A stretch of 64,000 bases of DNA from Minisyncoccota bacterium (GTDB taxonomy: Bacteria > Patescibacteriota > Minisyncoccia > Phycocordibacterales > SW-6-46-9): the NCBI GenBank assembly GCA_040905385.1, contig JBBDRP010000002.1, forward strand, positions 85,337 through 149,336, written 5' to 3'. The notes under the pieces were generated by a model. It was not told the DNA's origin and did no database searches. It saw nothing but the letters and a program-made list of their open reading frames with translations. Positions 7,877 through 35,605 of the stretch are shown here, one piece after another; position 1 is the first letter of the stretch, and the number at the start of each line of letters is the position of its first letter. Made by a program: the position numbers and the translations under genes.

Positions 7877-7975
7877 CTGCACTACAAATAATTCTCCAAC
7901 GGAGAATTTTATCTGCTCGGGCAATTTTTCTGCTGCGCAGAAACCATGCAAATTGCCCTGCGCAAGGCTTGTGAA
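7877..7975 (+). repeat. Family-1 structured intergenic repeat, copy A
   Basis: CTGCACTACAAATAA + hairpin + TTTTATCTGCTCGG + nested hairpin containing CATGCAAAT + CCTGCGCAAGGCTTGT. Aligns with copies at 25123, 27686, 30751(-), 32633 and 35503. Confidence 0.8.
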
Positions 7976-8027
7976 AAAAGGGTAACCGATAATTTATAAA
8001 ACGAGAGGCGCATGAAAATAGGGTTAC

Positions 8028-8335
8028 CTCATGTATTGACTACCAAGTGTAGTGAGAGACATGCAAATATATTTGCATGTCCGAACGAAGCGCCGGTAGG
8101 TAGATTGCCAAATCTACTCTTCAAGCAAAGCGAGTAATGCACAAGCTTGTTTGTATATTCGATCGACGCGTAGTGCAGATGGGTAAACTAGTGGTGGAAT
8201 CTCGCAACCTTTGACTGCCAAACGAAGCGAGTAGAATGAACGCTTGCATTTATTCTCGAGCGAAGTGCCGGCAGACAAATGGATAAATTCACTTTCAGTT
8301 TTAAACTGAAAGTGAAAAGAACCTTTAGGTTCTCT
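8028..8335 (+). repeat. Family-2 modular hairpin-repeat locus 1
   Basis: Units of the form CCAA..AG(C/T)GAG + variable hairpin + TCGA.CGA.G.GCCGG. Unit-for-unit homology to 29858-30057, but with the unit order swapped. Both loci start with TTGACTACCAA. Confidence 0.7.
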
Positions 8336-8464
8336 AGAAGTAATTCTTTGTTATCCATTTGACAAATAACCTGGTTCGCGTACTCTAATAAGACCTCCAA
8401 GGTTTCTGACCCAAGACCGACGGAGAACAATTTTACAACAGGCGCTATTTATAGGCGTCAGAAA

Positions 8465-8498
8465 GACCCACCGGCACTCTCCGGTGGGTCTTTTGTTT
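8465..8498 (+). terminator. Rho-independent terminator
   Basis: GACCCACCGG CACTCT CCGGTGGGTC followed by TTTTGTTTT. It lies at the end of the repeat-rich non-coding stretch 7986-8500, suggesting that stretch is transcribed on the + strand. Confidence 0.55.
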
Positions 8499-8586
8499 TA
8501 TTTAATAAAGTTGACATTCACCCTTAATGAAGGTATTTTCTACATAGACGTTATTCTCAACTCGAATCAAAATAAAGAGGTACAGA

Positions 8587-9170
8587 TGTTTAACAAAGAA
8601 AAAGAAATAGCCGATTTGCAAAGGCAGACATTGCACGTTCATGCATGGAATCATATCTCTGATATGGACGACGCAAAGAGCGTCTTTCGTAGTATTGATA
8701 AATCTCATATTCGCAAAAAGGCTTACAAGAAATACATAGTTTCATTGCGAAGACTTGTAGGAAGCGCTATAGCTTCTTCATTTATTAGGTCTGAGTATGA
8801 GAACAAAATCGAACAAGCTATTAAAGAGTTAATTGAATCCCTTGACCAAGAGCAACCCTTTCTTGCTAATATAGAAAAACAGACTGGACGCCTAAAACGC
8901 AATCAAAACTCTTTCTTCCATGATGAGGGGAGGGAAAATAGGAAGAAGGGAAATAACCTCAGCAGTGTTGAGGTGAAACAGCTTCTTTCTGCCTTATTTG
9001 ACATAGTTTCCTTTACCATGAAAGAAAACGGCCTGTCTCACATTCAGCCTTTTGAGAAAGAATCAATATTTAGCCTAATTTGTTCTGCTCAAACAGAACT
9101 AAAAAAAGATACCTCCTTTTCAAAATTTGTTGATGTGATGGTGGAAATACAAGCCAAGGAGAGGAGTTGA
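8587..9170 (+). CDS. hypothetical protein from an AT-rich, probably acquired gene
   Basis: 194 aa ORF with SD AAAGAGG 6 nt upstream of the ATG. Low GC relative to neighbours. No recognisable family. Confidence 0.45.
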
Positions 9171-9192
9171 AAATAAACCAAAATTTTTAATA

Positions 9193-9222
9193 GTCGGCCG
9201 TGTAAACACGGTCGACTTTTTA
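9193..9222 (+). terminator. Rho-independent terminator
   Basis: GTCGGCCGTG TAAACA CGGTCGAC followed by TTTTTATT. Confidence 0.6.
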
Positions 9223-9253
9223 TTATTCTCGTAAATTTGCTACACTTGAGAAC

Positions 9254-10495
9254 ATGACTACAGAAAATAAAAGCACGATTGGCGTTTTCTTTGGCTCACG
9301 CTCACCCGAGCATGATGTCTCTATCATCACTGCTTGCCAGACAATTAAGGGTCTGCGCGAGATCGGCTTTTCTGTTGTACCTATTTACGTCACTAAGGAT
9401 GGTCGAATGTTTCTTGGTCCCGACACCGATGACGCCACCGACGAGACGCTGGCTCGAGTTGATTACTTCCGCGATGATCTCGACAAGAAGCTGGCCAAGT
9501 TGGATGAGTATGACCTGGTACTGGCCGAGTCTGTTGGACGGCTACGTTTCGTAACGGAGATGATGTTCGCTTCCAAGTTTGTGGATGTCGACATTGCCTT
9601 CCCGACCTTTCACGGTCCGCATGGCGAGGATGGGGCGCTGCACGGGCTCTTTGATCTGGCAAATATTCCGGTGGTTGGCTGCGGCCAGCAGGCAAGCTCA
9701 ATTGCGATGGACAAGGCACTGACCAAGCTCATCTACCGACAGTTTGATATTCCGACCACTAACTTTCTGTACTTTACCCGCCGCGAATGGTCTCAGTATC
9801 AGGAGGCAATCTTAGAGGATCTGAAAAACTTCTCACTCCCACTGTTTGTGAAGCCGGCCCGAGCTGGTTCATCCATCGGTATTACCCGCGTTACCGATAT
9901 TGAGGAGCTATCTTTTGCTATCGAGGTGGCGCTGTCTTACGACACCAAGGTTGTTGTCGAGGAGGGGGTAGAGGACGTCGCCGACCTGACCGTCTGTCTT
10001 CTAGGTGATGAGGTACCGGAGCCGTCGGAGGTGCAGGAGTCGCACTTTGATAGTGACTTCTTTTCTTATGATGACAAGTATATAAATGATGGTGGTGCTC
10101 AGATTGGCGGAGCTGATAAGAAAATTATTATCCCGGCCGATGTTGATCAGTCGGTTCAGGATGAGGCTAAACAGATGGCGGTGAATATCTTTGCTCAGTT
10201 CGAGCTGTCCGGCATTGCTCGCGTCGACTTTCTTTATGACCGAGCCGAAGAGAAGTTGTATGCCAACGAGATCAATACCTTGCCCGGTACGTTGTACAAG
10301 CATCTCTGGGAGGAAAGCGGTGTCACCTTTGCTGAACTCCTACGTAGCCTCATCCGCACAGCTCGTCGTCGCCACAGTCGCAAGCAGGATACCTCCTACA
10401 CCTTTGAATCAGGAATTCTTGAGCATGCAGGTAAAGGGAAGCTTTCAAAATTAGCAGCTGATGATGACAGAGATCAGCTGAATGCTAGTAACTAA
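9254..10495 (+). CDS. ddl: D-alanine--D-alanine ligase with a C-terminal extension of about 60 aa
   Basis: N-terminus IGVFFGSRSPEHDVSIITA, ATP-grasp region, and EINTLPG near the C-terminus. At 413 aa it is longer than a typical Ddl. Confidence 0.85.
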   Translation: MTTENKSTIGVFFGSRSPEHDVSIITACQTIKGLREIGFSVVPIYVTKDGRMFLGPDTDDATDETLARVDYFRDDLDKKLAKLDEYDLVLAESVGRLRFVTEMMFASKFVDVDIAFPTFHGPHGEDGALHGLFDLANIPVVGCGQQASSIAMDKALTKLIYRQFDIPTTNFLYFTRREWSQYQEAILEDLKNFSLPLFVKPARAGSSIGITRVTDIEELSFAIEVALSYDTKVVVEEGVEDVADLTVCLLGDEVPEPSEVQESHFDSDFFSYDDKYINDGGAQIGGADKKIIIPADVDQSVQDEAKQMAVNIFAQFELSGIARVDFLYDRAEEKLYANEINTLPGTLYKHLWEESGVTFAELLRSLIRTARRRHSRKQDTSYTFESGILEHAGKGKLSKLAADDDRDQLNASN

Positions 10496-10514
10496 ACGCT
10501 AATCACTCTTATTT

Positions 10515-10838
10515 ATGATTTCATTTTCAGAATTTAAAGAGATGGATTTGCGCGTTGGAACCATTACCGAGGCTTTGGTGATAAAGGATGCTGACAAGCT
10601 CCTACTTCTTACTGTCTCGCTTGGTGATGAGGATCGTCAGGTCGTCTCCGGTATTAGATCCGTCGTCGATGACCCAGCAGAGCTCGTAGACACGCAGGTT
10701 ATATTTCTGGCCAATCTAGAGCCTAAGGAGATCTTTGGTTATGAAAGTCAGGGGATGATTATCGCCGCTCGTGATGGCGAAGACATCTCCTTAACGACCG
10801 TGGTTGATGAGGTGGCTCCTGGCAGTCAGGTTTCCTAG
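10515..10838 (+). CDS. tRNA-binding domain protein (CsaA / EMAP / MetRS C-terminal-like)
   Basis: 107 aa, DLRVGTI..ANLEPKEIFG..SQGMIIAA, typical OB-fold tRNA-binding domain. Confidence 0.65.
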   Translation: MISFSEFKEMDLRVGTITEALVIKDADKLLLLTVSLGDEDRQVVSGIRSVVDDPAELVDTQVIFLANLEPKEIFGYESQGMIIAARDGEDISLTTVVDEVAPGSQVS

Positions 10839-10934
10839 ACTATTCTTTGGCGATACAGGTTGCTCCCGTAAAGAAATTTTGCCGGAGCGGCATTCGGGAA
10901 AAATGGAAGCAAGCTTTCGTTTTATCCCTTATTT

Positions 10935-10981
10935 GCTCCCGTAGCTCAACCGGATACCTGCCTGCCGGCAGGCAGGGAGCA
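10935..10981 (+). pseudogene. Truncated tRNA-like element: 5' acceptor and D arm, then a 20-bp palindrome in place of the rest of the tRNA
   Basis: GCTCCCGTAGCTCAACCGGATA matches the 5' third of the tRNA-Arg at 3095. CCTGCCTGCCGGCAGGCAGG follows directly, then GAGC. No anticodon or T arm. Confidence 0.45.
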
Positions 10982-11010
10982 GATTTGATCAAGAGTTTTG
11001 AGCTTCATTA

Positions 11011-11082
11011 CTCCCCATAGTTCAACGGATAGAACAGGGGGTTTCTAACCCTCAAATCGAGGTTCGATTCCTCGTGGGGAGG
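11011..11082 (+). tRNA. tRNA-Arg(TCT)
   Basis: Acceptor CTCCCCA/TGGGGAG, D arm GTTC..GAAC, anticodon stem GGGGG/CCCTC with loop TTTCTAA, T arm CGAGG-TTCGATT-CCTCG. 72 nt. Confidence 0.8.
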
Positions 11083-12808: not shown

Positions 12809-13065
12809 GGTATTTATATTATAACTTTAATATCTTAAGGTGGGTCACAAGTAAATCTACTGACGTAGATTTCTCGCGGTCCGTTATGACTGGTCGTTTC
12901 GCGACATACGCCATTTTCCCTCGGGGAAATCTCCAAAAACACAAAGCAGTTTGTGTTTTTGCCCCGGCTCGTGGTTTTTGCCTTTCGCTTCGCTCAAACA
13001 AAAAAACATCACTGCGCTTCCCACAACCTAAAAATCCGCCAAACGGCGGATTTTCTTAACTGTTG

Positions 13066-14130: not shown

Positions 14131-14139
14131 AAATCAGCA

Positions 14140-15892: not shown

Positions 15893-16561
15893 ATGATGGC
15901 AAAGCCTGGTCCAAAACCAAAAAGAGAAGAGGTTGTGTGGTCTCCTGAGGTTGCGTACGGTGTTGGTTTGTTTGTAACTGACGGTTGTTTATCTAAGGAT
16001 GGAAGGCACCTAGATTTTACTTCCAAAGATGTTGAACAACTTAAAAATTTTAAGAAGTGCTTTGATTTAAATACAAAAATTTCCTACAAGACTTCGGGTT
16101 ATACAAATAAGAAGTGCCCTCGACTTCAGTTTAGTGATGTTGGTTTGTATCGTTTCTTCGTGAGTATTGGAATGACACCAGCAAAGACAAAAACACTTGG
16201 AACTATTGATGTTCCAGATGAGTATTATTTTGATTTCTTACGTGGACATCTAGACGGAGACGGTTGTTTTTATAGTTACTGGGATAAACGGTGGAAATCA
16301 AGTTTTATGTTCTATCTTGTATTTGCAGCTTACAGCGAATTACATATTAAATGGATACGAGAAATCTTAAGGGAGAATCTAAATGTTTCTGGTCATTTAA
16401 ATAAACCCAGTGAAAGAAGAATATTTCAGCTGAAATTTGCGAAAGAAGAATCCTTTAAGATCTTGAAAAAGATATATTACACAGAGGACATAGTGTGTCT
16501 GAGTAGGAAGCGTTTGAAAATAGAGAAAGCGTTAGGCATAATGGGCAAGCAGTTGTCATAA
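15893..16561 (+). CDS. free-standing LAGLIDADG-family homing endonuclease
   Basis: Two LAGLIDADG-like motifs: GLFVTDGCLSKDG and LRGHLDGDGCF. AT-rich. Lies between rplS and tRNA-Leu. Confidence 0.6.
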   Translation: MMAKPGPKPKREEVVWSPEVAYGVGLFVTDGCLSKDGRHLDFTSKDVEQLKNFKKCFDLNTKISYKTSGYTNKKCPRLQFSDVGLYRFFVSIGMTPAKTKTLGTIDVPDEYYFDFLRGHLDGDGCFYSYWDKRWKSSFMFYLVFAAYSELHIKWIREILRENLNVSGHLNKPSERRIFQLKFAKEESFKILKKIYYTEDIVCLSRKRLKIEKALGIMGKQLS

Positions 16562-24308: not shown

Positions 24309-25100
24309 ATGACTTACATAGACGAACGCTATTCAACACCACTTACAAAAGTTGTACTGGCCCTACTACTGATCGTTACTTTTTTCTTTGTGGTGATGTC
24401 AGTAAACGAGATTCGTGAAGGTGCCTACATCGGTCAGTCATCTGATGTGCAGAACACAATTTCGGTAAATGGTAAGGGCGAAGCCACCGCCATTCCGGAC
24501 ACGGCCAAGTTTACGGTTGGTGTAACACATGAAGCTGATACGGCAGAGGAGGCACAGACGCAGTCGAGTGAGGCGATGAATGAAATAATTAATTATCTTG
24601 CAGATGCAGGAATTGCTGAAGAAGATATCAAGACGATCAATTACAATGTCTCTCCTCGGTATGAATACTACGAAGCCCAGATTAGCCGACCGGGTGGTCA
24701 GCGTCAGCTAGTGGGGTATGAGGTAAGTCAGACCATTGAGGTTACGACTGATGATCTTGATCGTGCAGGCGAGCTACTCAGCGGCGTTGGTAGTCGTGGT
24801 GCTGACCGTGTTTCTGGATTACAGTTTGTTGTTGATGACGAGGAAGGGGTGCTGCGAGAGGCACGTGGAAATGCCATCGCTGATGCCCGTATAAATGCCG
24901 AGCAACTTGCCGAGGATCTTGGCGTACGTCTTGATGGAGTTGTTGGTTACAACGAGCTTGGTGGCGTCTCACCAATGTATCGTATGGAGCAGGCTGCTTT
25001 TGCAGATGATGCTGGTATGGGTGGCGGTGTATCTCCACAACTCCCGACTGGTGAGAATCGAGTAGAGTCTCGTGTTCAAGTGATTTATAAAATCAGGTAG
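24309..25100 (+). CDS. SIMPL / DUF541 (26 kDa periplasmic immunogenic protein) family protein
   Basis: N-terminal TM anchor. ISVNGKGEA..PDTA.F.VGV is typical of SIMPL. Confidence 0.6.
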   Translation: MTYIDERYSTPLTKVVLALLLIVTFFFVVMSVNEIREGAYIGQSSDVQNTISVNGKGEATAIPDTAKFTVGVTHEADTAEEAQTQSSEAMNEIINYLADAGIAEEDIKTINYNVSPRYEYYEAQISRPGGQRQLVGYEVSQTIEVTTDDLDRAGELLSGVGSRGADRVSGLQFVVDDEEGVLREARGNAIADARINAEQLAEDLGVRLDGVVGYNELGGVSPMYRMEQAAFADDAGMGGGVSPQLPTGENRVESRVQVIYKIR

Positions 25101-25122
25101 TGTTCACATTCTTCTTTTGTGT

Positions 25123-25222
25123 GTGCACAAATAATTCTCCAGCGAAGAATTTTATCCGCTCGCGTGATTTTTCCACTACGTGAAAACCGTGCAAATTACG
25201 CTGCGCGAGGCGCCACAAAAGA
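25123..25222 (+). repeat. Family-1 structured intergenic repeat, copy B
   Basis: ACAAATAA + TTCTCCAGCGAAGAA hairpin + TTTTATCCGCTCG + hairpin with CGTGCAAAT + CTGCGCGAGGCGCC. Confidence 0.75.
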
Positions 25223-25372
25223 AAACGTTCTCTTTCAAGATAAAAAACCGCACAAATGTGAGGTTTTGTGCTGATTATATCAACAGATTGCTTGACCTAT
25301 ATTAAATTTTGTTCTACTCTCTACTTAGATAGATTCACCTTCACATAAATTCACAATCAAAACAGGATTCTT

Positions 25373-26128
25373 ATGAAAAAACTGACTGCATTCCTATCAC
25401 TACTGATACTCACTGTCTCTGTACCGACCATTGCTGCAGCTGTTCAGTCTGACGTAACCAATCCAACCGACCGCCTTGTCTTCCAAGGAATTGCTGAAAA
25501 TAACTTTAGTTCAGTCGATAAACGAAATCTTGCTCGTGGAGAAGTGATTGAGAAAGAATTTCTTCAACCCGCCTTCCCGGCTAAACTTTTTCCCGTGGTT
25601 GAGCGGAGACAAAAAAGTATTATAGCTAATTTCTCTGCAGATAATTCCGGGATTGTAACCGAGGTGCCTGGAACTCGAAAAGAGTCCATGATAACCGAAA
25701 GCTCCTCAAGAGGACTACTGACTTCAATAGCGTGGTTAGTAATTCCATTCGCCAGTATTTTCTTTTTTGCGCTTTCTAGACCAAATAACAAAAAGCATGA
25801 AAAGGACTTCAAGAAGTTCGCCTTATCTTCTGGATCAATTGTTCTCGTCAGTCTTTTGGCCGGTGCGTATATTGGACCAACAGTCGGCTTACTTGTTGGA
25901 GCCGTTGGTGGAGTTATCATTGGAGCCGTCTATCTTTCTTTGTTCGGCTTCTTTGCTACATTTCTGTCAGCTGGGACCGTCGGTTACTATGCAGGAATCA
26001 TGACAGGGGCTGATACATCCTTAGGGATACTTTACTCGTACTGGGGGTTATACCTATTAGTATGCGCCCTAGCGGTTTTGGCTCGATGGGGTCAGAATCA
26101 CTCTACTACTGAACTCATAACAGGGTAG
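25373..26128 (+). CDS. hypothetical secreted/membrane protein
   Basis: Signal peptide, soluble domain, then C-terminal TM helices rich in G/A. Confidence 0.5.
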   Translation: MKKLTAFLSLLILTVSVPTIAAAVQSDVTNPTDRLVFQGIAENNFSSVDKRNLARGEVIEKEFLQPAFPAKLFPVVERRQKSIIANFSADNSGIVTEVPGTRKESMITESSSRGLLTSIAWLVIPFASIFFFALSRPNNKKHEKDFKKFALSSGSIVLVSLLAGAYIGPTVGLLVGAVGGVIIGAVYLSLFGFFATFLSAGTVGYYAGIMTGADTSLGILYSYWGLYLLVCALAVLARWGQNHSTTELITG

Positions 26129-26151
26129 TAATTAAAACATTAATTTATTGG

Positions 26152-26180
26152 AACGCACTGATTTAATCAGTGCGTTTTTT
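26152..26180 (+). terminator. Rho-independent terminator
   Basis: AACGCACTG ATTTAAT CAGTGCGTT followed by TTTTT. Confidence 0.6.
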
Positions 26181-26549
26181 ACTTTTTTACCCCAAAATCT
26201 CTGGTTTGTGGGTTTACATGCAGATAAATTTTTGCTACATTTATCCATGCAGCGCCAAAGACCACAGGCAAAGCTTGCGCAATTTCTAATGACCAATTCC
26301 TAATTTCTAGTTACTTTTAGAGATTAGATATTCCGATTTAGAAATTCGAGCGTAGCGAGTAAGTCCTGTCGAGGCCGCACAGACTCCAGATTTTTTGTAT
26401 TTGGATACGTTGCGGTGGCTTGGCGCCACCGCTTTTTTTATTGAGCGGTTAGCGAAATACCAGGTTAAACATCCCGCTAAAGCGGGATAAAATCGTAGAT
26501 TTTGTTCAACACGGGTAATGATCACTTTATTCACTAGATCGAAATAATT

Positions 26550-27047
26550 ATGGCACTAACACGAACACAAAAGACAGAAGTGCTTGCAGACCTGAGAGAG
26601 ATCCTGGATCAGGATCAGACTGTCACCTTTGTTCGTTTTGATCGTCTGTCTGTTGGCCGTATCGATGAGTTGCGAAGTCAGCTTCGCGAGGATGATGTAC
26701 GCCTACAGGTTGTTAAAAAGACGCTACTTGGTGTGGCGCTTGATGATGCCGAGATTCCTGGTGATAAGCCAGAATTTCCGGGTCAGATTGCCCTCACGTA
26801 TGGTCCTGGCAAAACAGCTTCTGCCCGCGGTTTGCACAACTTCAAGGTTGATGCAGATGCTGGTGAAGAGCTCGAGATTGTCGGCGGTATCTTCAATGGG
26901 GAGTACCGAGGCCAAGAGTCAATGATGGAGATCGCTCAGATTCCATCCACCGAAGAGTTGCGAGGTATGTTTGTTAACCTTATCAGCTCACCGGTCAGTG
27001 GCTTTGCAGTAGCACTTGATCAATACGCACAAAAGCAGGAAGCATAA
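26550..27047 (+). CDS. rplJ: 50S ribosomal protein L10
   Basis: MALTRTQK..VTFVRFDRLSV..LR.QLRE..V.L.VVKKTL matches L10. Confidence 0.9.
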   Translation: MALTRTQKTEVLADLREILDQDQTVTFVRFDRLSVGRIDELRSQLREDDVRLQVVKKTLLGVALDDAEIPGDKPEFPGQIALTYGPGKTASARGLHNFKVDADAGEELEIVGGIFNGEYRGQESMMEIAQIPSTEELRGMFVNLISSPVSGFAVALDQYAQKQEA

Positions 27048-27108
27048 ACGGAAAATTTTTATCACGTCTGACGTGATCTAATTAATAATATCTAATTTCT
27101 AATTAATT

Positions 27109-27666
27109 ATGGCTGAAGAAAAAAACAACGAAGAGGAGAAGAAGGAGGAAGAGGAAAGTGAAGAGGAGGAGACCGAAGAAGCAGAAGAAGAAAAGGAAGA
27201 GGAAGCAACCGAAGAAGAAGAGTCAGCAGATGACGAAGCCGACGATGCTGATGACGCAGATGAATCTGAGGACACAGAGGAAGAAGGTGAGGATGTAGAG
27301 GTTCCAGAGAAGTTTGCTGACATTGTCGAAGAGATCGAAGGTATGCCTGTTATCGAGCTGAACGAGCTGGTAAAGCTTCTGGAAAAGAAGTGGGGCGTAT
27401 CTGCACAGGCAGTAGCTGCTGCCGGTGGTGGCGGTGGAGAAGAGGAAGAGGAAAAGGATGCCTACGATGTAGAGCTAACTGACTTCGGTGACTCCAAGAT
27501 TGGTGTTATCAAGGCAGTAAAGAGCGCGCTTGGTCTGGGTCTAAAAGAGGCCAAGGGACTCGTTGAGGACGCACCAGTTGTACTGAAAGAAAAGGTTGCA
27601 ACTGAGGATGCTGAGGCGATGAAGGAGGCGATTGAAGAGGCGGGTGGAAGTGTGGAATTGAAGTAG
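27109..27666 (+). CDS. rplL: 50S ribosomal protein L7/L12 with an N-terminal poly-acidic extension of about 60 aa
   Basis: C-terminal two thirds match L12: [48 protein letters not shown]. There is no in-frame start between the M at 27109 and the conserved domain. Confidence 0.8.
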
Positions 27667-27685
27667 CTTGAAGTTTATCTACTTA

Positions 27686-27788
27686 CTGCACTACAAGTAA
27701 ATTCCCAGCGGGAATTTCTATCTGCTCAGCATCGCAGTCCCGTGCATACGGGACATCATGCTGCGATGCTTGCGCAAGGCTTGTAAGC
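27686..27788 (+). repeat. Family-1 structured intergenic repeat, copy C
   Basis: CTGCACTACAAGTAA + ATTCCCAGCGGGAAT hairpin + TTCTATCTGCTCAG + nested hairpin + CTTGCGCAAGGCTTGTAAG. Confidence 0.75.
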
Positions 27789-27830
27789 AGATAACACTTC
27801 ACACCGCCTCGAGGGAGGTTAAGGTAAAAA

Positions 27831-27857
27831 AGACTGCCCAGTGGGCAGTCTTTTTTG
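27831..27857 (+). terminator. Rho-independent terminator
   Basis: AGACTGCCCA GT GGGCAGTCT followed by TTTTTT. Confidence 0.6.
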
Positions 27858-27949
27858 TTGGCTCGATAAGAGAAAATAAATTGACAATTCTTCTTTAAAT
27901 CTGTACTTTAATATTAAATGTAATCTTAACAACTAAATAGGAGGTGCCT

Positions 27950-29032
27950 ATGGCACGTTCACGAAAAGACAGAGTATTTGACGCCCTTAGTCCACAAGAA
28001 GAAGACTCAGCGATATTTAAAACTCGACACGCAGTCAATTGGTCACAGCACTGGAAGGTACAAAAAGCCAGTCGAGGTATCCGGGATCTGCAGGGAGAAC
28101 TGTTCGAAAAGGTAGAGAAGCGAGAGTTGTTGGAGGGGATTTTTGGTAGAGATGGTGGTTTAAAGCAAGTTCGATCTAAGTTTTGGTCATTGCTGATCTC
28201 ATTGCTGGTCTCATCCACTATTGCTAGCTTAGCGGCTGGAAAAATAGTGGAGAAGATATTCGAGATTTGGTACTGGAGGGGTTTTTTAAGCCTTCTCTTC
28301 ATCACTTCGGTTGCTTCTTTCTTGTATACTCTTTACAGAACGTATATTGATCTCTACCCGCGCGCAGCTTGGCTTTATTGGTGGAAGGTACGCAAAGAAG
28401 AGCGCGAGCCGATCAACTCTATTGAGGCGATTGAGCATTTGATCTATTTATTCAATAAAAGTTCGATTACTGAGTTGTCGGGAGCCTTCAGTGATATGTA
28501 CCATTACAACAAGTACAGAGAGGAGGCTGTGAAGTATCGGGACTGGCTAGAGAAAAACACACAGAAAGATTCTATCCACAGCCAAGAAGTTCTTGATATG
28601 TTCAAGGACCGCTTTGATGCCGTAGAAAGCATTTTTCAGAAGCTTGAACGAAAGGAAGAAGAGATACTGACTCAAGCCAAAAAGCTATCGGCAAAGACTT
28701 TCCCCAGTCACAAGAAAGAGATGGTTAGGATAGAGAGGTCTATTTCCGAGCTTGTTTCTGAAGAGTCAGGTAATATCGAGAATCTTCTCGTACAACCACA
28801 GGAGAAAAAGAGTGAAATCGAAGAAGAAATCATCACTTCTGTGAAAACGCTTCATGAGATGTTCAGTACAGCCTTGAGAATCTGTAGAAACATTCACCAT
28901 GAAAAATGGAAGAAGCGAGATGATGACTCTGTTACTCGCATGTCGACTAAGTCTCTAACGAGAATCCAGAAGATGGAGTTAACAGAAGACGACGAAGTCA
29001 AAGAGGAAGAAGACATCTCAAATGAAAAATAA
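27950..29032 (+). CDS. hypothetical membrane protein with a coiled-coil C-terminal region
   Basis: SD AGGAGG 9 nt upstream. Two TM helices at about aa 80-130. AT-rich. Confidence 0.5.
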   Translation: MARSRKDRVFDALSPQEEDSAIFKTRHAVNWSQHWKVQKASRGIRDLQGELFEKVEKRELLEGIFGRDGGLKQVRSKFWSLLISLLVSSTIASLAAGKIVEKIFEIWYWRGFLSLLFITSVASFLYTLYRTYIDLYPRAAWLYWWKVRKEEREPINSIEAIEHLIYLFNKSSITELSGAFSDMYHYNKYREEAVKYRDWLEKNTQKDSIHSQEVLDMFKDRFDAVESIFQKLERKEEEILTQAKKLSAKTFPSHKKEMVRIERSISELVSEESGNIENLLVQPQEKKSEIEEEIITSVKTLHEMFSTALRICRNIHHEKWKKRDDDSVTRMSTKSLTRIQKMELTEDDEVKEEEDISNEK

Positions 29033-29129
29033 TCACAACCCGCTCCTGCCCAGTTAATTCTGGGGAGGGGCTTTTTAAAACACACAGAAAATATTTTTCC
29101 AGAATGTTTTGTGTTAAAATCGTTTTTGT

Positions 29130-29732
29130 ATGGATATTCTCGAAACACTATTTTCCAGTGCCGCCCGGGTACGAATTCTCCGGACGTTTTTATTTCAGCC
29201 GCGCAAGACATTCTCTGCCAGCGACATTGCCGAGCGGACTGACGTAGCCTCAACGACTGCACGGGCTCACGCGCAGGATCTGGCGGCCATTAAGCTACTG
29301 CATGAGGTCGAGGCAAAAGATTACACCAACGGTCAATCAGTGACAGCCTGGAAGCTGAATCGTAACTCAAGTCTGCGACGCCCGCTGCATGAAATCGTGC
29401 TCAAGCATCAGGACATCACCCCGGATGATATTAAGAAGCGTCTCGAGCGACTGGGGGACATCTCGCTTCTAGTTCTTAGCGGAATCTTTTCCGGCACCGA
29501 TGATCGACCCATTGATGTACTGATTGCAGGCAGCGGTATCGATACCGCAAAGCTTGCCCGGTCGCTATCACGAATTGAAAAATCTTTTGGAACCGAGCTA
29601 CGTTATACGCACCTTTCTAAAGAAGAGTTTGATTATCGACGTAATGCCTACGACCGACTGATCCGCGATGTACTCGACTACCCGCACCACGTCCTGATTG
29701 ACGAAAAGAATGTTACTACGCAGCTGGATTAG
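29130..29732 (+). CDS. hypothetical protein, possibly a winged-helix N-terminus plus a nucleotidyltransferase-like C-terminus
   Basis: N-terminal ILRTF..FSASDIAERT is wHTH-like. C-terminal GSGID..IDVLIAG weakly resembles minimal NTase motifs. Confidence 0.4.
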   Translation: MDILETLFSSAARVRILRTFLFQPRKTFSASDIAERTDVASTTARAHAQDLAAIKLLHEVEAKDYTNGQSVTAWKLNRNSSLRRPLHEIVLKHQDITPDDIKKRLERLGDISLLVLSGIFSGTDDRPIDVLIAGSGIDTAKLARSLSRIEKSFGTELRYTHLSKEEFDYRRNAYDRLIRDVLDYPHHVLIDEKNVTTQLD

Positions 29733-29857
29733 CTTGCGAGTTACTAGCCTCTAGCAATTAGCTCTTAGCCACGTCGAACGTGGTAAAACATTTAGCGCAT
29801 TTTTTAAGATAAACAGCACGTGTTACGTAGCATGCTACGTAACAAGTAAAGGTAATT

Positions 29858-30057
29858 GACTACCAAACAAAGCGAGCAATACACAAGCTTGCTTGTATAT
29901 TCGAGCGACGTGCAGGAAGGTTGATTCTTGAATCAACTCTCCAAGCGTAGTGAGTGACATGGACACTTGTATCTATGTCCGAACGGAGCGCCGGGAGACA
30001 AAAAAATAACCTGCTTTCAAGCATGCTTGAAAGTAGGAAAGCTGAGAGCTTTCCAGA
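29858..30057 (+). repeat. Family-2 modular hairpin-repeat locus 2
   Basis: Begins TTGACTACCAA like locus 1. Units with ACAAGCTTGCTTGT and ATGGACACTTGTATCTAT hairpins are flanked by AGCGAG / GTCCGAACGGAGCGCCGG. The stems are covariant with those in locus 1. Confidence 0.7.
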
Positions 30058-30159
30058 GAACCCCTCGTTATCTTTTTGACAAAGACCTTATAAGATGCTT
30101 TAATAAGTTCAGATTTACATTAATTAATACGAACAAACCCGCCCCGGAGGGCGAAGATA

Positions 30160-30543
30160 ATGGAAGAAACCAAAAAAGATCTGAAGATTACCGCTGAAGA
30201 TTTGAGTGAATTGAAAGACGAACAGCACAGATTCTATGCCAGAACTGTCACCAAGCCAGGTAGTGCACTTGATAAGTTTGATGACGCACTTAACCAATTG
30301 ACAGAAAATGAAAAATGGATTCTTTTTTTGCACCATGCTGAGAACCAACCTTTCAAGGTAATTGCAACAGAAATGTCACTTCCGTACCATGATCCACAGC
30401 AGGTTAAAAATATACATGACGAAAGCATGCAGAAACTTATTGAGGAACTTGACTTGTCATCAGAGGATGAAATAAGTCACCTTTTTGTCTTTAAAGATCT
30501 TCAGCAAAAGGCTCTCAAGGTGATAAATACACTTTCTTCGTGA
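30160..30543 (+). CDS. hypothetical protein with a sigma-70 region-4-like HTH
   Basis: LTENEKWILFLHHAENQPFKVIATEMSLPYHDPQQVKNIHDESMQKL resembles a sigma r4 / LuxR-type HTH. 127 aa. Confidence 0.4.
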   Translation: MEETKKDLKITAEDLSELKDEQHRFYARTVTKPGSALDKFDDALNQLTENEKWILFLHHAENQPFKVIATEMSLPYHDPQQVKNIHDESMQKLIEELDLSSEDEISHLFVFKDLQQKALKVINTLSS

Positions 30544-30750
30544 ATAAGAAATATAGATACCGAATTTGCAATAAGCAGTTCGGTATTTTCTTTTAAGCCT
30601 GCAATTTTAATTGCTGGCGTTACCCGCTTACTTGAAGCTTCAAGTAAGCGGGTAAACCTTAAAGTGAGTATCTTTATTTCATAAGCCTCGCGCATTATTA
30701 AAACCACAGCCGTAGGCTGTGGTTGCTATTTAAGTGAGCCTTCTTATGTT

Positions 30751-30848
30751 GTAAGCCTTGCGCAGGGCAATTTGCATGGTTTCTGCGTTGCAGAAAAATT
30801 GCCCGAGCAGATAAAATTCTCCGCTGGAGAATTATTTGTAGTGCAGCA
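30751..30848 (-). repeat. Family-1 structured intergenic repeat, copy D, in reverse orientation
   Basis: Its reverse complement is almost identical to copy A: CTGCACTACAAATAATTCTCCAGCGGAGAATTTTATCTGCTCGGGCAATTTTTCTGCAACGCAGAAACCATGCAAATTGCCCTGCGCAAGGCTTAC. Confidence 0.8.
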
Positions 30849-31081
30849 ACATAAAGAAGGCGAACGACCCCTTGACTCTGAAGGTGATTTTCTTTACTAT
30901 GGCACTCAGCCTCACGGCCGCGTGGGCTTGTTTTGCGCGCGTAGTGAGGCATGTTGATTTCAGTACAGCTTCTCGGTGCATGGTCGCGAGCCAAGATTTG
31001 TTCTCGCGCGTTCGCGTCCGTGAATACCGGGACGGCTTAGAGAGATTACAAACATTACTAGAATTTAGTTTTTATTTTATT

Positions 31082-32275
31082 ATGGCAGACTTTAATCGAG
31101 ACAAACCCCACGTCAACATCGGTACAATTGGCCACGTTGACCACGGTAAGACAACACTTACTGCCGCAATCCTGCACACCCTGTACAACACTGACGGGTA
31201 CGATGCACAGGAGAAGGCGATCGACCAGATCGACAACGCTCCTGAGGAAAAGGATCGTGGTATTACAATTGCGTTGGCACATACTGAGTACATGACACCA
31301 AACCGTCACTACGCTCACGTTGACGCCCCAGGACACGCCGATTACATTAAGAACATGATCACCGGTGCCGCCCAGATGGACGGAGCTATCCTTGTGGTAG
31401 CTGCGACTGATGGTGCGATGCCACAGACTCGTGAGCACATCCTCCTGGCTCGCCAGGTTGGTGTTCCACGCCTCGTTGTATTCCTTAACAAAACCGACAT
31501 GGTTGATGACCCAGAGTTGATTGATCTGGTTGAGGAGGAGATTCGTGAACTACTAACACAGTACGAGTACGATGGAGACAACACTCCAGTACTTCGCGGC
31601 TCAGCCCTGAAGGCACTTGAGTCTGAGGATGCTGAAAGTGAAGAGGCCAAGGCTGTCATCGAGCTTATCGACGCTGTCGATGAGTGGATCGAGGAGCCGG
31701 CTCGTGAGACTGACGTACCATTCCTGATGCCGATCGAGGATATCTTCTCAATCGAAGGTCGTGGAACGGTTGCGACAGGACGTATCGAGCGTGGAGTGAT
31801 GAACGTTGGTGACGAGGCCGAGATTGTTGGTATCAAGGACACACAGAAAACCACAATCACCGGAATCGAGATGTTCAATAAGCAGTTGCAGGAAGGTCAG
31901 GCTGGTGATAACGCCGGAATTCTGCTACGTGGTCTGAAGAAAGACGACATCACCCGTGGACAGGTTATTGCAGCTCCAGGCTCAGTAACACCACACACAA
32001 GTTTTGAAGCTGAGGTGTACGTCCTCTCCAAAGAGGAAGGTGGACGACACACTCCATTCTTCTCTGGCTACAAGCCGCAGTTCTACATCCGCACAACGGA
32101 CGTAACTGGTGAAGTAACGCTAGAAGAAGGAACAGAGATGGTAATGCCGGGTGATACCGCTACCTTCAAGATTCAGCTGATTAACCCAGTTGCGCTTGAG
32201 GACGGAACTCGATTTGCTATCCGAGAGGGTGGTAAGACGGTTGGTGCTGGTGTTGTAACCAAGATCACAGAATAG
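31082..32275 (+). CDS. tuf: elongation factor Tu
   Basis: [35 protein letters not shown] and NKTD motifs. 397 aa. The ORF-track N-terminal extension was rejected. Confidence 0.95.
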
Positions 32276-32276
32276 T

Positions 32277-32609
32277 ATGGCGCAAGCTACCGACACTGAC
32301 ACAGGCCAGAAGCTCCGCATTCGTGTGCGAGCCTACGACCACAAAATCCTTGACTCATCAATTCAGCAAATCCTTGATACCGCTATTCGGTATGAGGCTG
32401 AGGTAGCCGGTCCTGTACCGCTACCAACCGAGACCAAGAAGTATACGGTGAATCGATCGACCTTTGTACACAACGATGCGCGAGAACAGTATGAAATGCG
32501 TGTACACAAGCGTCTTATTGATATTCAGGATCCAGCTGCTGACGTAATGGATGCACTGACGAACCTGAATCTTCCGGCTGGTGTCTCGATTGATGTGCAA
32601 ATGGTTTAA
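32277..32609 (+). CDS. rpsJ: 30S ribosomal protein S10
   Basis: LRIRVRAYDHKILD......G..PLPT....YTV.RS.HVHKD..E.YE.R.HKRLIDI. Confidence 0.9.
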   Translation: MAQATDTDTGQKLRIRVRAYDHKILDSSIQQILDTAIRYEAEVAGPVPLPTETKKYTVNRSTFVHNDAREQYEMRVHKRLIDIQDPAADVMDALTNLNLPAGVSIDVQMV

Positions 32610-32632
32610 CGTTCGCACCCTTCTCTTTACAC

Positions 32633-32712
32633 AGACATAAATAAAATCCTTGTAGATTTTTTATCCGCTCGGTCCGACTTGAGTCGGACCTGTGCGAGGT
32701 CTGAGTAAAAGA
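32633..32712 (+). repeat. Family-1 structured intergenic repeat, short variant copy F
   Basis: ACATAAATAAA + small hairpin + TTTTATCCGCTCGG + TCCGACTTGAGTCGGA hairpin + CCTGTGCGAGGTCTGAGTAAAAG. Confidence 0.65.
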
Positions 32713-32730
32713 GGGTGCTCACTTTAAGGT

Positions 32731-32814
32731 CGTACATCTCTCCCGAGAGATGTACGTGCCTGTCTGCCTGCTGGCAGACAGGGTAGTAGTAGAGGGTAAG
32801 TTGCATTTACCTCT
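32731..32814 (+). promoter_or_regulatory. Cluster of three perfect hairpins between rpsJ and rplC
   Basis: CGTACATCTCTCCCGAGAGATGTACG (11 bp stem), CCTGTCTGCCTGCTGGCAGACAGG (10 bp stem), AGAGGGTAAGTTGCATTTACCTCT. Sits in a 290-bp gap that other bacteria do not have. Confidence 0.5.
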
Positions 32815-32900
32815 TGAGATTGGTACAGTTTGAGCGCGAAAGTGTTGCTAAATGGTTAGGAGATCTCATTACATCTTCTGACAAATTGAAGATATAAATC

Positions 32901-33554
32901 ATGAAATACACACTTGGAAAAAAGAAAAGAATGACCCAGATCTTTGACGAGATGGGCAAGGCACATCCGGCCACCCCGGTAGCGGTTGAGCCCCTGAAGG
33001 TTGTTCGTATCAAAACGAATGATACAGACGGATACGCTGCTTACCAGCTTGGTTACGGGAGTCGTTCTGAAAAGAACACACCAAAGCCACAGCAGATTGA
33101 AGCAGCCAAGCGCGAGGACGGAACGTACTTTCGTTTCTTACGTGAGTTCCGACTCCAGGGTGATGACGACATCACGCTTGAGGTCGGTGATACGCTGGAC
33201 GTTGATGCTTTTGCTGTCGGCGACAAGGTTAATGTGTCCGGTGTTACGAAAGGAAAGGGATTCCAGGGTGTGGTAAAGCGTCATGGATTTGGTGGCGGTC
33301 GCCGCTCTCACGGTGGACAGAAGTCAGCAGAGCGCGGACCAGGATCCATCGGTGCGACCGGCCCAAGCCACGTATTTAAAGGTACCCGCATGGGAGGGCG
33401 CATGGGAGGAGAGAAGTCGACTGTTCAGAATCTTGAGATTGTGCACGTTGATCCGTCAGAAAATCTCATCTACATTCGCGGTGGGCTTCCGGGCCCAACA
33501 GGTGCTACAATCGAGATAAATGGAGAGATGCACACCAGTAAAACAGCCGCTTAA
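32901..33554 (+). CDS. rplC: 50S ribosomal protein L3
   Basis: GKK..MTQIFDE.G...P.T......V...KT...DGY.A.QLG..., FKGTRMGGRMGG. Confidence 0.9.
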   Translation: MKYTLGKKKRMTQIFDEMGKAHPATPVAVEPLKVVRIKTNDTDGYAAYQLGYGSRSEKNTPKPQQIEAAKREDGTYFRFLREFRLQGDDDITLEVGDTLDVDAFAVGDKVNVSGVTKGKGFQGVVKRHGFGGGRRSHGGQKSAERGPGSIGATGPSHVFKGTRMGGRMGGEKSTVQNLEIVHVDPSENLIYIRGGLPGPTGATIEINGEMHTSKTAA

Positions 33555-33556
33555 TC

Positions 33557-34231
33557 ATGAAATCATCTGTATACAACACAGCCGGTGAATCAGCCGACTC
33601 AATCGAACTTCCCGACGTGCTTTTCGGGCAGAAGCCGCGAGTTGATCTGCTGCATCGAGTGGTAACAGTGACGCGAAATAATCTTCGCCAGCCGATTGCC
33701 AGCACTAAAGACCGTCGTGATCGTGCTGGTGGTGGTCGTAAGCCGTGGCGTCAGAAGGGTACGGGTCGGGCTCGCCATGGTTCGGTTCGCAGCCCTATCT
33801 GGCGTGGTGGTGGTGTTACCTTTGGTCCAGATAAAGAGCGAAGCCATAAAGGTAAGGTGAGCAAAACAGAACGACGTCAGGCAGTGGTATCGGCTTTGTC
33901 CGGAAAGCATCGCGACGGTGAAGTACTGTTTGTTGATGAACTCTCTTTCAAGGAGCCGTCTGCTGCTGCCGCTCGCGAGATGATCACCAATCTTTCCGGT
34001 GTAAAGGGATTTGCCCCACTTGAAGACCGTCGCAAGAACGCAGCGCTCATTATCCTGCCCGAGTATGATGAAAATGTAGCGTTGTCCTTCCGTAACTTTG
34101 GAAACATTGCTGTACGAGAGGCAAAGGACATCAGCACACTTGATTTATTGACGTATAAATATACAATCATTGCTGACCCAGAGAAGGTTCTGGACACCCT
34201 CGTCTCTCGCGTTACGGCTAAAACTGCTTAA
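33557..34231 (+). CDS. rplD: 50S ribosomal protein L4
   Basis: RQKGTGRARHGS.RSPIWRGGGV.FGP. Confidence 0.9.
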   Translation: MKSSVYNTAGESADSIELPDVLFGQKPRVDLLHRVVTVTRNNLRQPIASTKDRRDRAGGGRKPWRQKGTGRARHGSVRSPIWRGGGVTFGPDKERSHKGKVSKTERRQAVVSALSGKHRDGEVLFVDELSFKEPSAAAAREMITNLSGVKGFAPLEDRRKNAALIILPEYDENVALSFRNFGNIAVREAKDISTLDLLTYKYTIIADPEKVLDTLVSRVTAKTA

Positions 34232-34233
34232 TT

Positions 34234-34632
34234 ATGGCTTTATTTGGAAAAGACAAAAAAGAAAAGGATACCGAAAAGAAGACGAAAGAGTCTTCAGCCG
34301 ATGACACGTCAACGAACGTCTCAGTAGCCACTGCCAAGCGAGTCGACAACAGCAATCACGATGTTTTGGTTAAGCCGCTCATTACTGAGAAGGCGACGTA
34401 TATGACTGATGACGGTATCTATGCATTTGTTGTACGGTCTTCGGCCAACAAGCCCCAGATTAAGCAGGCGGTAAAGGATGTGTATGGCGTTGATGTGGTG
34501 AAGGTTCGTACCGTCACGCTACCAGCCAAGCAGGTACCGGCCCGATCACGTCGAGCGAAGCCAGGTACCAAAGGCGGTCTCAAGAAAGCTTACGTTCATC
34601 TGAAAGACGGCGACTCAATCGAACTAATGTAA
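34234..34632 (+). CDS. rplW: 50S ribosomal protein L23 with an N-terminal K/E-rich extension of about 40 aa
   Basis: Core DVLVKPLITEKATYM..YAFVV...ANK.QIKQAV...YGVDVVKVRT. Confidence 0.85.
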   Translation: MALFGKDKKEKDTEKKTKESSADDTSTNVSVATAKRVDNSNHDVLVKPLITEKATYMTDDGIYAFVVRSSANKPQIKQAVKDVYGVDVVKVRTVTLPAKQVPARSRRAKPGTKGGLKKAYVHLKDGDSIELM

Positions 34633-34637
34633 ATAAT

Positions 34638-35486
34638 ATGAAAGACCCACGACCAACAACACCATCACAGCGACACACACGACTTTCTGATCACAAGAAG
34701 TCGGTAACTCGCTCCAAGCCATACAAGCGCCTGACCAGCGCGCGTCGAGGTACTGGTGGTCGTGGAAACACCGGGAAGATCACGACTCGTCACAAGGGTG
34801 GCGGGCACAAGCGCCGCATGCGTGGCATTGATTTCTCTCTTCGTGATAAGCAGGGAATTCCGTCAGTTGTTGAGTCCGTTGAGTATGATCCAAACCGATC
34901 CGGCTACATTGTCTTGCTTCTGTTTGCTGACGGTGAGCGGCGCTACATGCTGGCTCCGCAAGAGCTTTCAGTTGGTGAGCCGGTGGCGATTGCCGAGGAT
35001 GCAGAGGTAAAGCCAGGTAACCGATTGGCGCTTAAGAATATTCCTGTTGGTACAAGTGTTTTTAATATTGAACTAAAGCCAGAAGGAGGCGGAAAGATTG
35101 CCCGTTCTGCGGGCAACAGTGCCGAAGTATCAGCCAAAGGCAAGAAGCATGTAACGCTGAAGATGCCGTCTAGCGAGGTACGCAAAGTATCGCGTGAATG
35201 TTTTGCATCTGTAGGTACTGTTTCCAACCCAGAACACCGACAGCGGGTGATTGGTAAAGCTGGTCGTAACCGCTGGCTTGGCAAGCGCCCAACGGTACGT
35301 GGACAGGCGATGAACCCAGTTGATCATCCGTACGGTGGTGGTGAGGCGCATCACACTCGTGGAACCAAGCGAGCAAAAACCTACACTGGTCGTCCGGCTG
35401 GTAAAGGGCAGAAGACACGTAATCGCAAGAAGTACTCGAATAAGCTAATCGTATCGCGGCGTAAGAGTAAGAAGAAAAAGAAGTAG
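34638..35486 (+). CDS. rplB: 50S ribosomal protein L2
   Basis: GRN..G.I..RHKGGGHKR, MNPVDHP.GGGE motifs, and a K-rich C-terminus. Confidence 0.9.
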   Translation: MKDPRPTTPSQRHTRLSDHKKSVTRSKPYKRLTSARRGTGGRGNTGKITTRHKGGGHKRRMRGIDFSLRDKQGIPSVVESVEYDPNRSGYIVLLLFADGERRYMLAPQELSVGEPVAIAEDAEVKPGNRLALKNIPVGTSVFNIELKPEGGGKIARSAGNSAEVSAKGKKHVTLKMPSSEVRKVSRECFASVGTVSNPEHRQRVIGKAGRNRWLGKRPTVRGQAMNPVDHPYGGGEAHHTRGTKRAKTYTGRPAGKGQKTRNRKKYSNKLIVSRRKSKKKKK

Positions 35487-35502
35487 CTCATACCCTGTTT
35501 TG

Positions 35503-35605
35503 TTGCGTTACAAATAAACCACGCCAGCGCGTGGTTTTTATCTGCTCGGATGATTTTCTGCTAGCGCAGAACCATGCAAATCACCCTCCGCAAGACTTAC
35601 AAAAC
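35503..35605 (+). repeat. Family-1 structured intergenic repeat, copy E
   Basis: ACAAATAA + ACCACGCCAGCGCGTGGT hairpin + TTTTATCTGCTCGG + hairpin with CATGCAAAT + CCTCCGCAAGACTTACAAAACAG. Confidence 0.75.

Follow-up and report, generated by a model that had tools for sequence, protein, structure and literature searches.

The window analysed here, a stretch of 64,000 nucleotides from a Minisyncoccota bacterium of the Patescibacteriota (contig JBBDRP010000002.1, positions 85,337 to 149,336), harbors a family of small repeats, six full copies and one fragment of which lie within 28 kb. The repeats form a non-coding family that is restricted to one lineage, occurs in multiple copies and conserves a branched fold, and in the best reading they behave as a small selfish mobile element rather than as a dedicated regulatory RNA. 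In kind, the family is a small palindromic interspersed repeat, like the Rickettsia palindromic elements (RPE), ERIC and REP/BIME, and we put at about 0.6 the probability that it represents a non-autonomous, structure-defined mobile or convertible cassette of this kind, specific to the Patescibacteria. This reading is carried by cores that recur, identical or nearly so, within closing stems unrelated to one another, across genes and genomes and in either orientation, by the exchange of the core at one and the same site, and by orthologous sites that are polymorphic, being filled, empty or reduced to a bare palindrome. The material examined comprised the 64 kb of the source genome and about thirty related loci.

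Few known genomes are as small and as streamlined as those of Patescibacteria, and such repeats are seemingly undescribed there; a search of the literature returned no description of palindromic or of MITE-like (miniature inverted-repeat transposable element) repeats in the Candidate Phyla Radiation. The occurrence of a repeat family in ribosomal-protein operons and in dus, the gene for tRNA-dihydrouridine synthase, suggests that selfish DNA continues to be tolerated and exchanged by such genomes. Meanwhile, the family offers a marker for strain typing and accounts for odd gaps and spurious open reading frames (ORFs) in annotations.

The branched fold and its copies in the window

A covariance model (CM) was built from the six copies listed in a first-pass annotation of the window and run unfiltered over the whole window on both strands. 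Exactly these six were returned at the coordinates given there, with E values from 1e-16 to 1e-31 that are far beyond chance and with scores of 141.5 (copy D), 131.8 (A), 127.1 (B), 119.3 (C), 108.1 (E) and 79.0 bits (F), the next-best match in the window reaching 14.4 bits. The count of six was incomplete, a 5'-truncated seventh copy at 30657-30694 on the minus strand having been overlooked, of which only the 3' part is present (TGCGCGAGGCTT-arm-CTCAC-TTTAAGG).

The unit is a three-way junction of about 100-140 nt, which runs from the closing stem P1 through the strand ACAAAU, the hairpin P2, the strand UUAUC and the hairpin P3 back into P1. The closing stem, 12-30 bp long, is different from site to site and may take in flanking host sequence, and the conserved core of 58-94 nt carries P2 and P3. 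P3 is built on the base UGC.U.C/.U.G.C.GCA, and its distal stem with an ACCAUGC internal loop is optional. The repeat had been described as a two-hairpin unit of about 100 bp; both hairpins stand, and the size has to be extended to about 110-140 nt by the outer stem P1 that closes the unit. The shared blocks ACAAATAA, TTTTATCYGCTCGG and CTGCGCAAGGCTTG-like are present in the copies, as are the quoted stem variants TTCTCC/GGAGAA, ACCACGC/GCGTGGT and ATTCCC/GGGAAT. The block C(A/G)TGCAAAT, placed by the same annotation in the second hairpin, is found in some copies as an optional internal-loop module, which is absent from copy F and from most copies of other genomes.

Copy A, including the extended P1, spans 7853-7994 of the plus strand (core 7877-7970; CM match 7859-7989), the 5' arm of P1 (7853-7877) pairing with the 3' arm at 7971-7994 in minimum-free-energy and duplex folds. 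The junction strand J1/2 (ACAAAT, 7884-7889), which alignments reveal to be conserved across genomes, is followed by P2 (AATTCTCC-AAC-GGAGAATT, 7890-7908), by the likewise aligned junction strand J2/3 (TTATC, 7909-7913) and by P3 (7914-7964), in which a TGC/GCA base is succeeded by an irregular U/C internal loop, a variable stem and the optional distal stem with an ACCATGC internal loop. Copy B (25103-25232, plus strand) begins 2 nt past the stop codon that ends the SIMPL gene, copy C (27668-27801, plus) 1 nt after that of rplL and upstream of the rplL terminator, and copy F (32612-32722, plus), a short form whose P3 is a simple hairpin, 2 nt after that of rpsJ, while copy E (35485-35616, plus) overlaps the rplB stop codon by 2 nt. 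Copy D (30734-30864, minus) is located in the spacer upstream of tuf, and a hairpin (AACCACAGCC-TACG-GCTGTGGTT, 30702-30724, minus) stands between it and the truncated copy. The naming of the neighbors as murF, the SIMPL gene, rplL, rpsJ and rplB agrees with Pfam, which gives Mur ligase, SIMPL, L7/L12, S10 and L2; Pfam neighbors also include EF-Tu, L3 and S19.

The fold is conserved through changes on both sides of its stems. RNAalifold, applied to a MAFFT alignment of the six window copies, gave 35 pairs, 27 of which are changed on both sides. A larger alignment of 23 copies from the window and other genomes was fitted to the CM, which favours the pairing result; 91.2% of its cells form standard pairs, compared with 58.9% in shuffles, and pairing amounted to 31-50% in a control in which the partner was slid by 1-3 columns. 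Changes on both sides were encountered in 30 of 31 pairs of this alignment, in 7 of the 8 modelled pairs of P2, and all 13 pairs of P3 covary, a P3 base pair being U-A in 14 copies and C-G in seven. The compensatory stem change noticed in the first-pass annotation is thus borne out statistically.

What it had been taken to mean, a conserved secondary structure of RNA or of single-stranded DNA, holds as regards the structure, and the inference to RNA is not supported, for G·U pairs are not in excess and copies that lie antisense or inside an ORF keep the fold. In a functional RNA of such diversity, many G·U pairs on one strand only are normally expected. Among the 636 cells of the 23 copies, G·U accounts for 12 and the A·C mismatch for 23, so that the strand-specific G·U tolerance expected of selection at the RNA level was not seen, and the near-pure Watson-Crick pairing looks like the constraint on a palindrome at the DNA level. 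It should be borne in mind that RNA function is not proven by strong stem covariation alone. In each of the 23 copies the more stable fold is that of the antisense strand, which is attributed to the A/C-rich unpaired regions of the sense strand and is not taken as evidence for an antisense RNA. A helix between ACAAAUA and UAUCUGC with antisense G·U pairs was also considered and rejected as the main fold, since it competes with the cleanly covarying P3 base pair and the energy gap is that expected from A/C-rich loops.

Filled, empty and exchanged sites in related genomes

EF-Tu, with a best match of 95%, puts the window organism among Patescibacteria of the Paceibacteria type, and homologues of the repeat were met in this phylum only. 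A look-up of the exact rpsJ protein, and one of a second protein (P0034), gave no record. A loose pattern scanned over 185,579 species genomes matched 113 loci in all phyla, almost all of which are chance matches and which doubled as a negative control for the CM; four of them (L012, L016, L061 and L082), all in metagenome-assembled genomes (MAGs) of Patescibacteria, were accepted. A strict pattern matched nine contigs in metagenomes, and all nine were accepted, while none of ten pattern matches in viral contigs was, and BLAST against phage and plasmid sequences gave no match. The search beyond the window proposed in the first-pass annotation has accordingly recovered homologues in other Patescibacteria, and, across the genome and metagenome scans checked with the CM, in Patescibacteria only.

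Comparison of the copies separates the core from its closing stem. The cores of A and D, described earlier as nearly identical, agree at 91 of 94 positions, all three differences being located in hairpin loops, and their flanking 20 nt agree at 4/20 and 7/20. The copy in dus of L016 and the copy in the spacer before mnmA in a different MAG (L082) have cores identical at 64 of 64 positions between outer arms that match at 10/20 and 9/20. The core of L138 equals the reverse complement of that of L136 over 58 of 58 positions, both being inserted in dus genes whose coding DNA is about 75% identical, and the dus copies of L016 and L114 are alike over the whole element (98/99) within flanking dus DNA that is 69-71% identical. 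Conversely, L134 and L140 have P1 in common with L016, with compensatory changes, and possess a different 5' half-core. In copy A, the outer arm AATTATCGGTAACC (7853-7866), which spans the last codons of the Mur ligase gene and its TAA stop (7862-7864) and is the native end of that gene, is complementary at 13 of 14 positions to GGTAACCGATAATT (7981-7994); the opposite arm of P1 is an inverted copy of host sequence, as it is in dus. Taken from these alignments, P1 appears to belong to the site and the core to behave as a cassette.

The dus site furnishes the largest series of alleles. The element follows the codons for GNPWLF in L016 and L061/L114, and copies of 99-102 nt, in frame and free of stop codons, are present in forward orientation in L016, L114, L134, L135, L138 and L140 and in reverse orientation in L136, where the alignment scores 57 and the highest null score is 30. 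Among 106 close dus orthologues that could be parsed, a set retrieved through intact proteins from which frame-breaking copies would escape, 40 are empty with a linker of 12-16 residues, the element stands in frame in 26, and the remaining 40 have other inserts at this position. A footprint is seen in L133, which equals L134 minus 81 nt between ATATT repeats, the outer arms being left as a bare palindrome. The outer 3' arm (GTTCCNTC) provides the VPS codons, which are conserved in empty alleles, and the predicted insert peptide is SKSTNNFLLKILSARPSRPAQGF. In the AlphaFold model of the L016 protein the inserted residues 247-274, between the last TIM-barrel strand and the C-terminal helical domain, have a predicted local distance difference test score (pLDDT) below 50, which fits a tolerated linker insertion of the type reported for Rickettsia palindromic elements (PMC10969869). 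Removal from the dus mRNA as a bulge-helix-bulge or intron-type element was considered and dismissed, as no such motif is present and the 3' arm encodes the conserved VPS residues. Among the loci compared, dus alone was seen as host of in-frame copies; a concatenated three-frame peptide query gave no candidates. At about 10730-10850, the dus gene of L137 carries a long hairpin of 54 kcal/mol that encodes RHEDTSDFELPEGPTPVLGGRAQGREIRSIF and is not detectably related to the three-way-junction family, indicating that other palindromic families use the same hot spot.

Sites orthologous to those of the window are filled in some relatives and empty in others. In L141-L144, whose EF-Tu is 93% identical, diverged copies occupy the D and F sites, and the site of copy E is a 78-nt spacer after rplB that holds no copy. 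The orthologue of D is strongly diverged (L141 5469-5597, minus), and its upstream flank GAGTCAAGGGG is conserved in L141-L144; the D orthologues differ through wholesale compensatory change, P3c and its bulge being kept in the L141 copy. The orthologue of F (L141 7477-7566) is without P2. In L145, with an EF-Tu identity of 86%, no copy was returned anywhere on the contig even by the unfiltered search, so that B, C, D and F are absent: no copy follows the SIMPL gene, no element separates the rplL stop from the terminator, which comes some 37 nt later, and the rpsJ-rplC spacer retains only TTCAC-AGAAG-CTCACTTTAA. Moreover, in eight syntenic loci of Nomurabacteria/Paceibacteria the dprA-serS spacer is empty in six, where it measures 11-38 nt, and holds a copy in two (L133 and L140).

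Flanking motifs and neighboring DNA

In many copies CG-YTCRC stands on the left and YTCRC-TTNAA on the right, and G[T/C]TC on the left together with YTC|RC on the right is found in about 12 of 17 independent copies, being absent in A, C, L082, L116 and L122. A flanking direct repeat (GGTAACC, 7 nt) exists at copy A only; elsewhere YTCRC is common to many copies. Since YTCRC is the same across copies and not specific to each, it probably does not represent target duplications. The end of the element that abuts the ORF is its 5' end in all cases; nearness to an ORF is partly automatic in genomes with spacers of 10-40 nt, and this polarity is not. A role of the 3' arm of P1 in masking the Shine-Dalgarno sequence of the next gene was also considered and rejected, as the start codon of that gene usually lies at a distance of over 100 nt.

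Further hairpin modules bounded by YTCRC follow the copies in a mosaic that recalls BIMEs, and the intergenic DNA as a whole looks like a mosaic of such modules. A composite is common to L012 (4328-4466, minus) and to the window (30560-30740, minus), although the genomes are unrelated; it consists, in order, of a full copy, CTCAC-TTAAATAGC, a hairpin, a piece resembling the 3' fragment (..TGCAAGACTTAC..TTCGC) and a further hairpin, and the window hairpin GCAATTAAAATTGC resembles CCCACAATTAAAATTGTAGG and GGCTGCAATAAATTGCAGCC of L012. The 12-mer AAATAAAGATAC occurs exactly three times against 0.4 expected (30668-30679, minus; 35657-35668, plus; 3976-3987, plus), two of the sites being situated in modules downstream of D and E and each followed by a YTCRC-like motif; the one behind E is preceded by a hairpin outside the repeat (35626-35653, plus).

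A second repeat family is composed of tandem units of about 78 nt, of which three lie just 3' of copy A (8036-8290) and two (29856-30012) between the helix-turn-helix gene and the gene at 30160. The consensus of the unit is TTGACTnCCAAGCGAAGCGAG-(variable palindrome of about 24 nt)-TTCGAnCGAAGCGCCGG; the units fold into a long irregular hairpin, in which 9 of 20 pairs are compensatory, and have no Rfam match. Minus-strand ORFs overlapping them (8114-8278, 8188-8430 and 29860-30024) are probably spurious.

Variable DNA is also met beside the copies. In the S10 operon a gap of 1,067 nt between rplB and rpsS (35487-36552) contains copy E and several strong hairpins, together with the minus-strand ORFs 35789-36256 and 36256-36474 that have no Pfam match; L141-L144 have a single minus-strand ORF of 140 aa there. 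Genes without Pfam match lie directly downstream of B (25373-26128, 251 aa) and C (27944-29032, 362 aa). In L145 the former is absent, the SIMPL gene being followed by rplJ, and the latter is replaced by a minus-strand ORF of 119 aa, which suggests that the repeats border variable gene content. Elsewhere in the window, the ORF 15893-16561 directly after rplS gives a weak match to LAGLIDADG_3 (homing-endonuclease-like), and rplL contains a GAAGAG-type tandem repeat (27130-27221), its protein of 185 aa having the L12 dimerisation domain preceded by an N-terminal extension that is acidic and rich in repeats. A direct repeat of 37 nt with 97% identity (4941-4977 and 5123-5159) overlaps the 5' end of the tRNA at 4874-4958 (minus) and might stem from the duplication of a tRNA end on integration of an element.

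Competing explanations and comparison with known systems

Under the favored explanation, a process at the DNA level would place the core, by copying or insertion, as a cassette in palindromic sites able to form hairpins, and both orientations would be found at one site because the target is symmetric. Candidate routes are the cutting of hairpins in single-stranded DNA by an HUH-type nuclease and short-patch recombination via the self-complementary arms after DNA uptake. The stems might stay complementary either because the hairpin is needed for the process or because template switching at inverted repeats mends both arms; such switching yields compensatory changes in one step (PMC8794818), and the arms may also grow complementary by it. 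Host selection would spare harmless insertions, namely those in the gap between stop codon and terminator, in promoter-distal spacers and in an in-frame, disordered protein linker. When transcribed passively within a 3' untranslated region (UTR), P1 would loop the insert out of the mRNA, and, as the element starts no more than 10 nt from the stop codon, termination and the stability of the 3' end may be affected incidentally.

The layout of a conserved core with variable termini and the identical cores in different stems and orientations together point to a mechanism of mobility or gene conversion that reads the shape of DNA. A more specific proposal, which we consider improbable as it stands, is that the core may integrate specifically at the center of DNA palindromes or hairpins in either orientation and may be excised or swapped there, the closing stem being drawn from the target, without conserved termini or duplication, and that this activity extends across the Patescibacteria. 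If true, a structure-targeting cassette could home to the same dus codon in species whose genes are about 70-75% identical.

Several observations weigh against a mobile cassette. About 12 independent intergenic copies lie in sense orientation and start from -6 to +10 nt relative to the stop codon, and D and F have been retained in relatives and are still folded, though about half of the element sequence has changed; both are also expected of an RNA useful to the host. Core identity between genomes could reflect very strong constraint instead of recent transfer. In addition, no clean target-site duplication was shown in the copies compared, and the termini, unlike those of classical MITEs, are not conserved among copies. 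Neither a transposase, integrase or HUH gene nor an autonomous parent element was seen among the approximately 40 window ORFs scanned with Pfam, and the evidence base consists of the 64 kb and some thirty loci named at the outset.

The alternative that survives best, unlikely as we judge it, is a host-functional, cis-acting 3'-UTR RNA, which would bind a conserved factor or RNase, stabilise or process operon mRNAs or tune termination, and would have spread as useful; it is compatible with a mobile origin. The strong sense bias directly after stop codons speaks for it, as does the position of copy C between a stop codon and a separate terminator. The junction strands and the ACCAUGC loop are conserved while the stems covary, orthologous copies included, the retention of D and F with compensatory evolution is in keeping with it, and the unpaired regions are A/C-rich on the sense strand. 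Effects of comparable repeats on expression are documented: in E. coli, REPs separated from a stop codon by under 16 nt lower translation (Liang et al. 2015, as cited in PMC12306157), and ERIC and Correia elements change mRNA decay (PMC10969869). Against it stand the lack of an excess of G·U over A·C, the at least five independent copies that are antisense or upstream of divergent genes (about five in our count lie antisense or adjoin a divergent gene start), the same core in either orientation inside dus, where it is translated, close relatives devoid of the element at the same genes, and neighbors as functionally unrelated as Mur ligase, SIMPL, ribosomal proteins, mnmA and dus. The idea of a terminator-like RNA, put forward in the first-pass annotation, has to be abandoned, for no T run (U tract in the transcript) follows P1, and C, D and E each have a separate terminator-like hairpin 20-40 nt downstream; the one behind copy C (27826-27856, plus), read from the sequence with its T run, is outside the repeat.

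A single-strand element mobilised by an HUH nuclease (IS91 or IS200/IS605/RAYT-like), which cuts 3' of G(T/C)TC under the guidance of subterminal hairpins, would be a mechanistic version of the mobile cassette, and we rate it as decidedly unlikely. It would account for G[T/C]TC on the left and YTC followed by RC on the right in the roughly 12 of 17 copies mentioned above, GTTC/CTTG being the target of the IS91 family, which carries subterminal palindromes and causes no duplication (PMC13181058), and likewise for a conserved structure with little G·U wobble (12/636 cells), as expected for DNA hairpins, and for the consistent abutment of one element end on an ORF boundary. The motif is, however, absent from the AT-rich short forms (L082, L116 and L122) and from A and C, the hairpins of a single genome differ in sequence from copy to copy, a diversity that one transposase reading sequence would not accept, long end-to-end pairing is not a feature of these families, and the ORFs scanned include no HUH gene.

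The cassette reading had been anticipated in part by the first-pass annotation, which named a MITE/REP-like mobile element among its options; this option fits best in view of the filled and empty orthologous sites, the in-frame dus copies and the identical cores found elsewhere. The classical MITE, that is, an internally deleted DDE-type insertion sequence (IS) moved in trans via conserved terminal inverted repeats (TIRs) with direct target duplications, is by contrast very improbable. Small, non-coding, multi-copy elements with filled and empty orthologous sites and with inverted-repeat arms on each copy would be anticipated of it, as would the GGTAACC flanks of copy A. Its termini would be conserved, whereas here the arms differ among copies even beside identical cores, so that a conserved branched core with variable termini is the opposite of the MITE layout; the flanking YTCRC, being the same among copies, probably does not represent target duplications, and no parent IS or transposase is encoded among the ORFs scanned.

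Scarcely credible are attC-like sites of an integron-like cassette system, which would explain the position after stop codons and the variable genes beside B, C and E. Structure is conserved and sequence variable, sense copies come directly after ORFs, the genes next to B, C and E are missing or different in relatives, and the cores are more stable when folded as bottom strand; but RYYYAAC/GTTRRRY core sites are missing (the flanks read CGYTCRC and YTCRCTT), the Pfam scans of the window ORFs gave no integrase, and the copies follow core ribosomal genes or sit inside dus and are dispersed, with no arrays.

Least probable of all is an independent small-RNA gene, a riboswitch or a self-cleaving or self-splicing ribozyme family, which the compact three-way junction with conserved junction nucleotides and the aptamer-and-expression-platform look of the terminator-like hairpins after C, D and E might recall, but which finds no Rfam match (at gathering, five tRNAs only in the window; at E up to 10, weak unrelated matches only in 25000-36000), no promoter-like site before any copy and no relation among the downstream genes, while the dus copies, in frame, stop-free and with a 3' arm that gives VPS codons, are translated and not removed, and self-cleavage would destroy the dus mRNA; the small-RNA option of the first-pass annotation is dropped on these grounds.

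Set against known systems, the layout of the family, with a conserved branched core, a variable closing stem and apparent cassette behavior, seems to match no described family. With attC it shares recognition by fold and not by sequence, a variable terminal structure and a sense position directly after ORFs; it differs in having no R'/R'' boxes, integrase or arrays and in the copies inside essential operons and an ORF. The IS91 and IS200/IS605 families appear to resemble it in a G(T/C)TC-type tetranucleotide at the left flank and right end, in subterminal hairpins, in an apparent absence of duplication and in asymmetric ends (PMC13181058). Here, in contrast, no transposase is found among the ORFs scanned, the motif is missing in about one third of the copies, the hairpins vary within a genome and the two ends pair. 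Correia elements and classical MITEs are also small, non-coding and invertible, with insertion polymorphism and long terminal stems that are possible RNase III substrates in transcripts (PMC10969869), but the conserved TIRs and TA duplication of Correia were not seen here.

The REP/BIME-RAYT system is similar in that its hairpin repeats are defined by structure and a short conserved flanking motif, lie close behind stop codons and form module mosaics, the modules being bounded by YTCRC in the present case. REPs are simple hairpins of 20-40 nt, whereas the unit described here is a three-way junction 3-4 times larger, and no RAYT (Y1 HUH) gene occurs among the window ORFs scanned. ERIC/IRU elements, imperfectly palindromic and about 127 bp long, occupy transcribed intergenic regions and gene 3' ends and are present in either orientation, with strain site polymorphism, optional internal modules and occasional intragenic copies (PMC10969869), all of which has its counterpart here. 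ERIC copies share the whole sequence including the ends, whereas here the ends differ and the core is conserved, and no sequence similarity was detected.

The RPE differ in host phylum, which is unrelated, and presumably in sequence; moreover, one host gene is seen here, though P1 of copy A also overlaps the 3' end of the Mur ligase gene, the branched core is conserved inside a site-specific stem, and the same core stands in both orientations at one site. Even so, they too are palindromic, measure about 100-150 bp and inhabit reduced genomes, both between genes and in frame within housekeeping genes, whose proteins then carry them as surface insertions (PMC10969869), and their parallel here is the dus linker, which bears inserts of any kind in 66 of 106 orthologues and has a pLDDT below 50.

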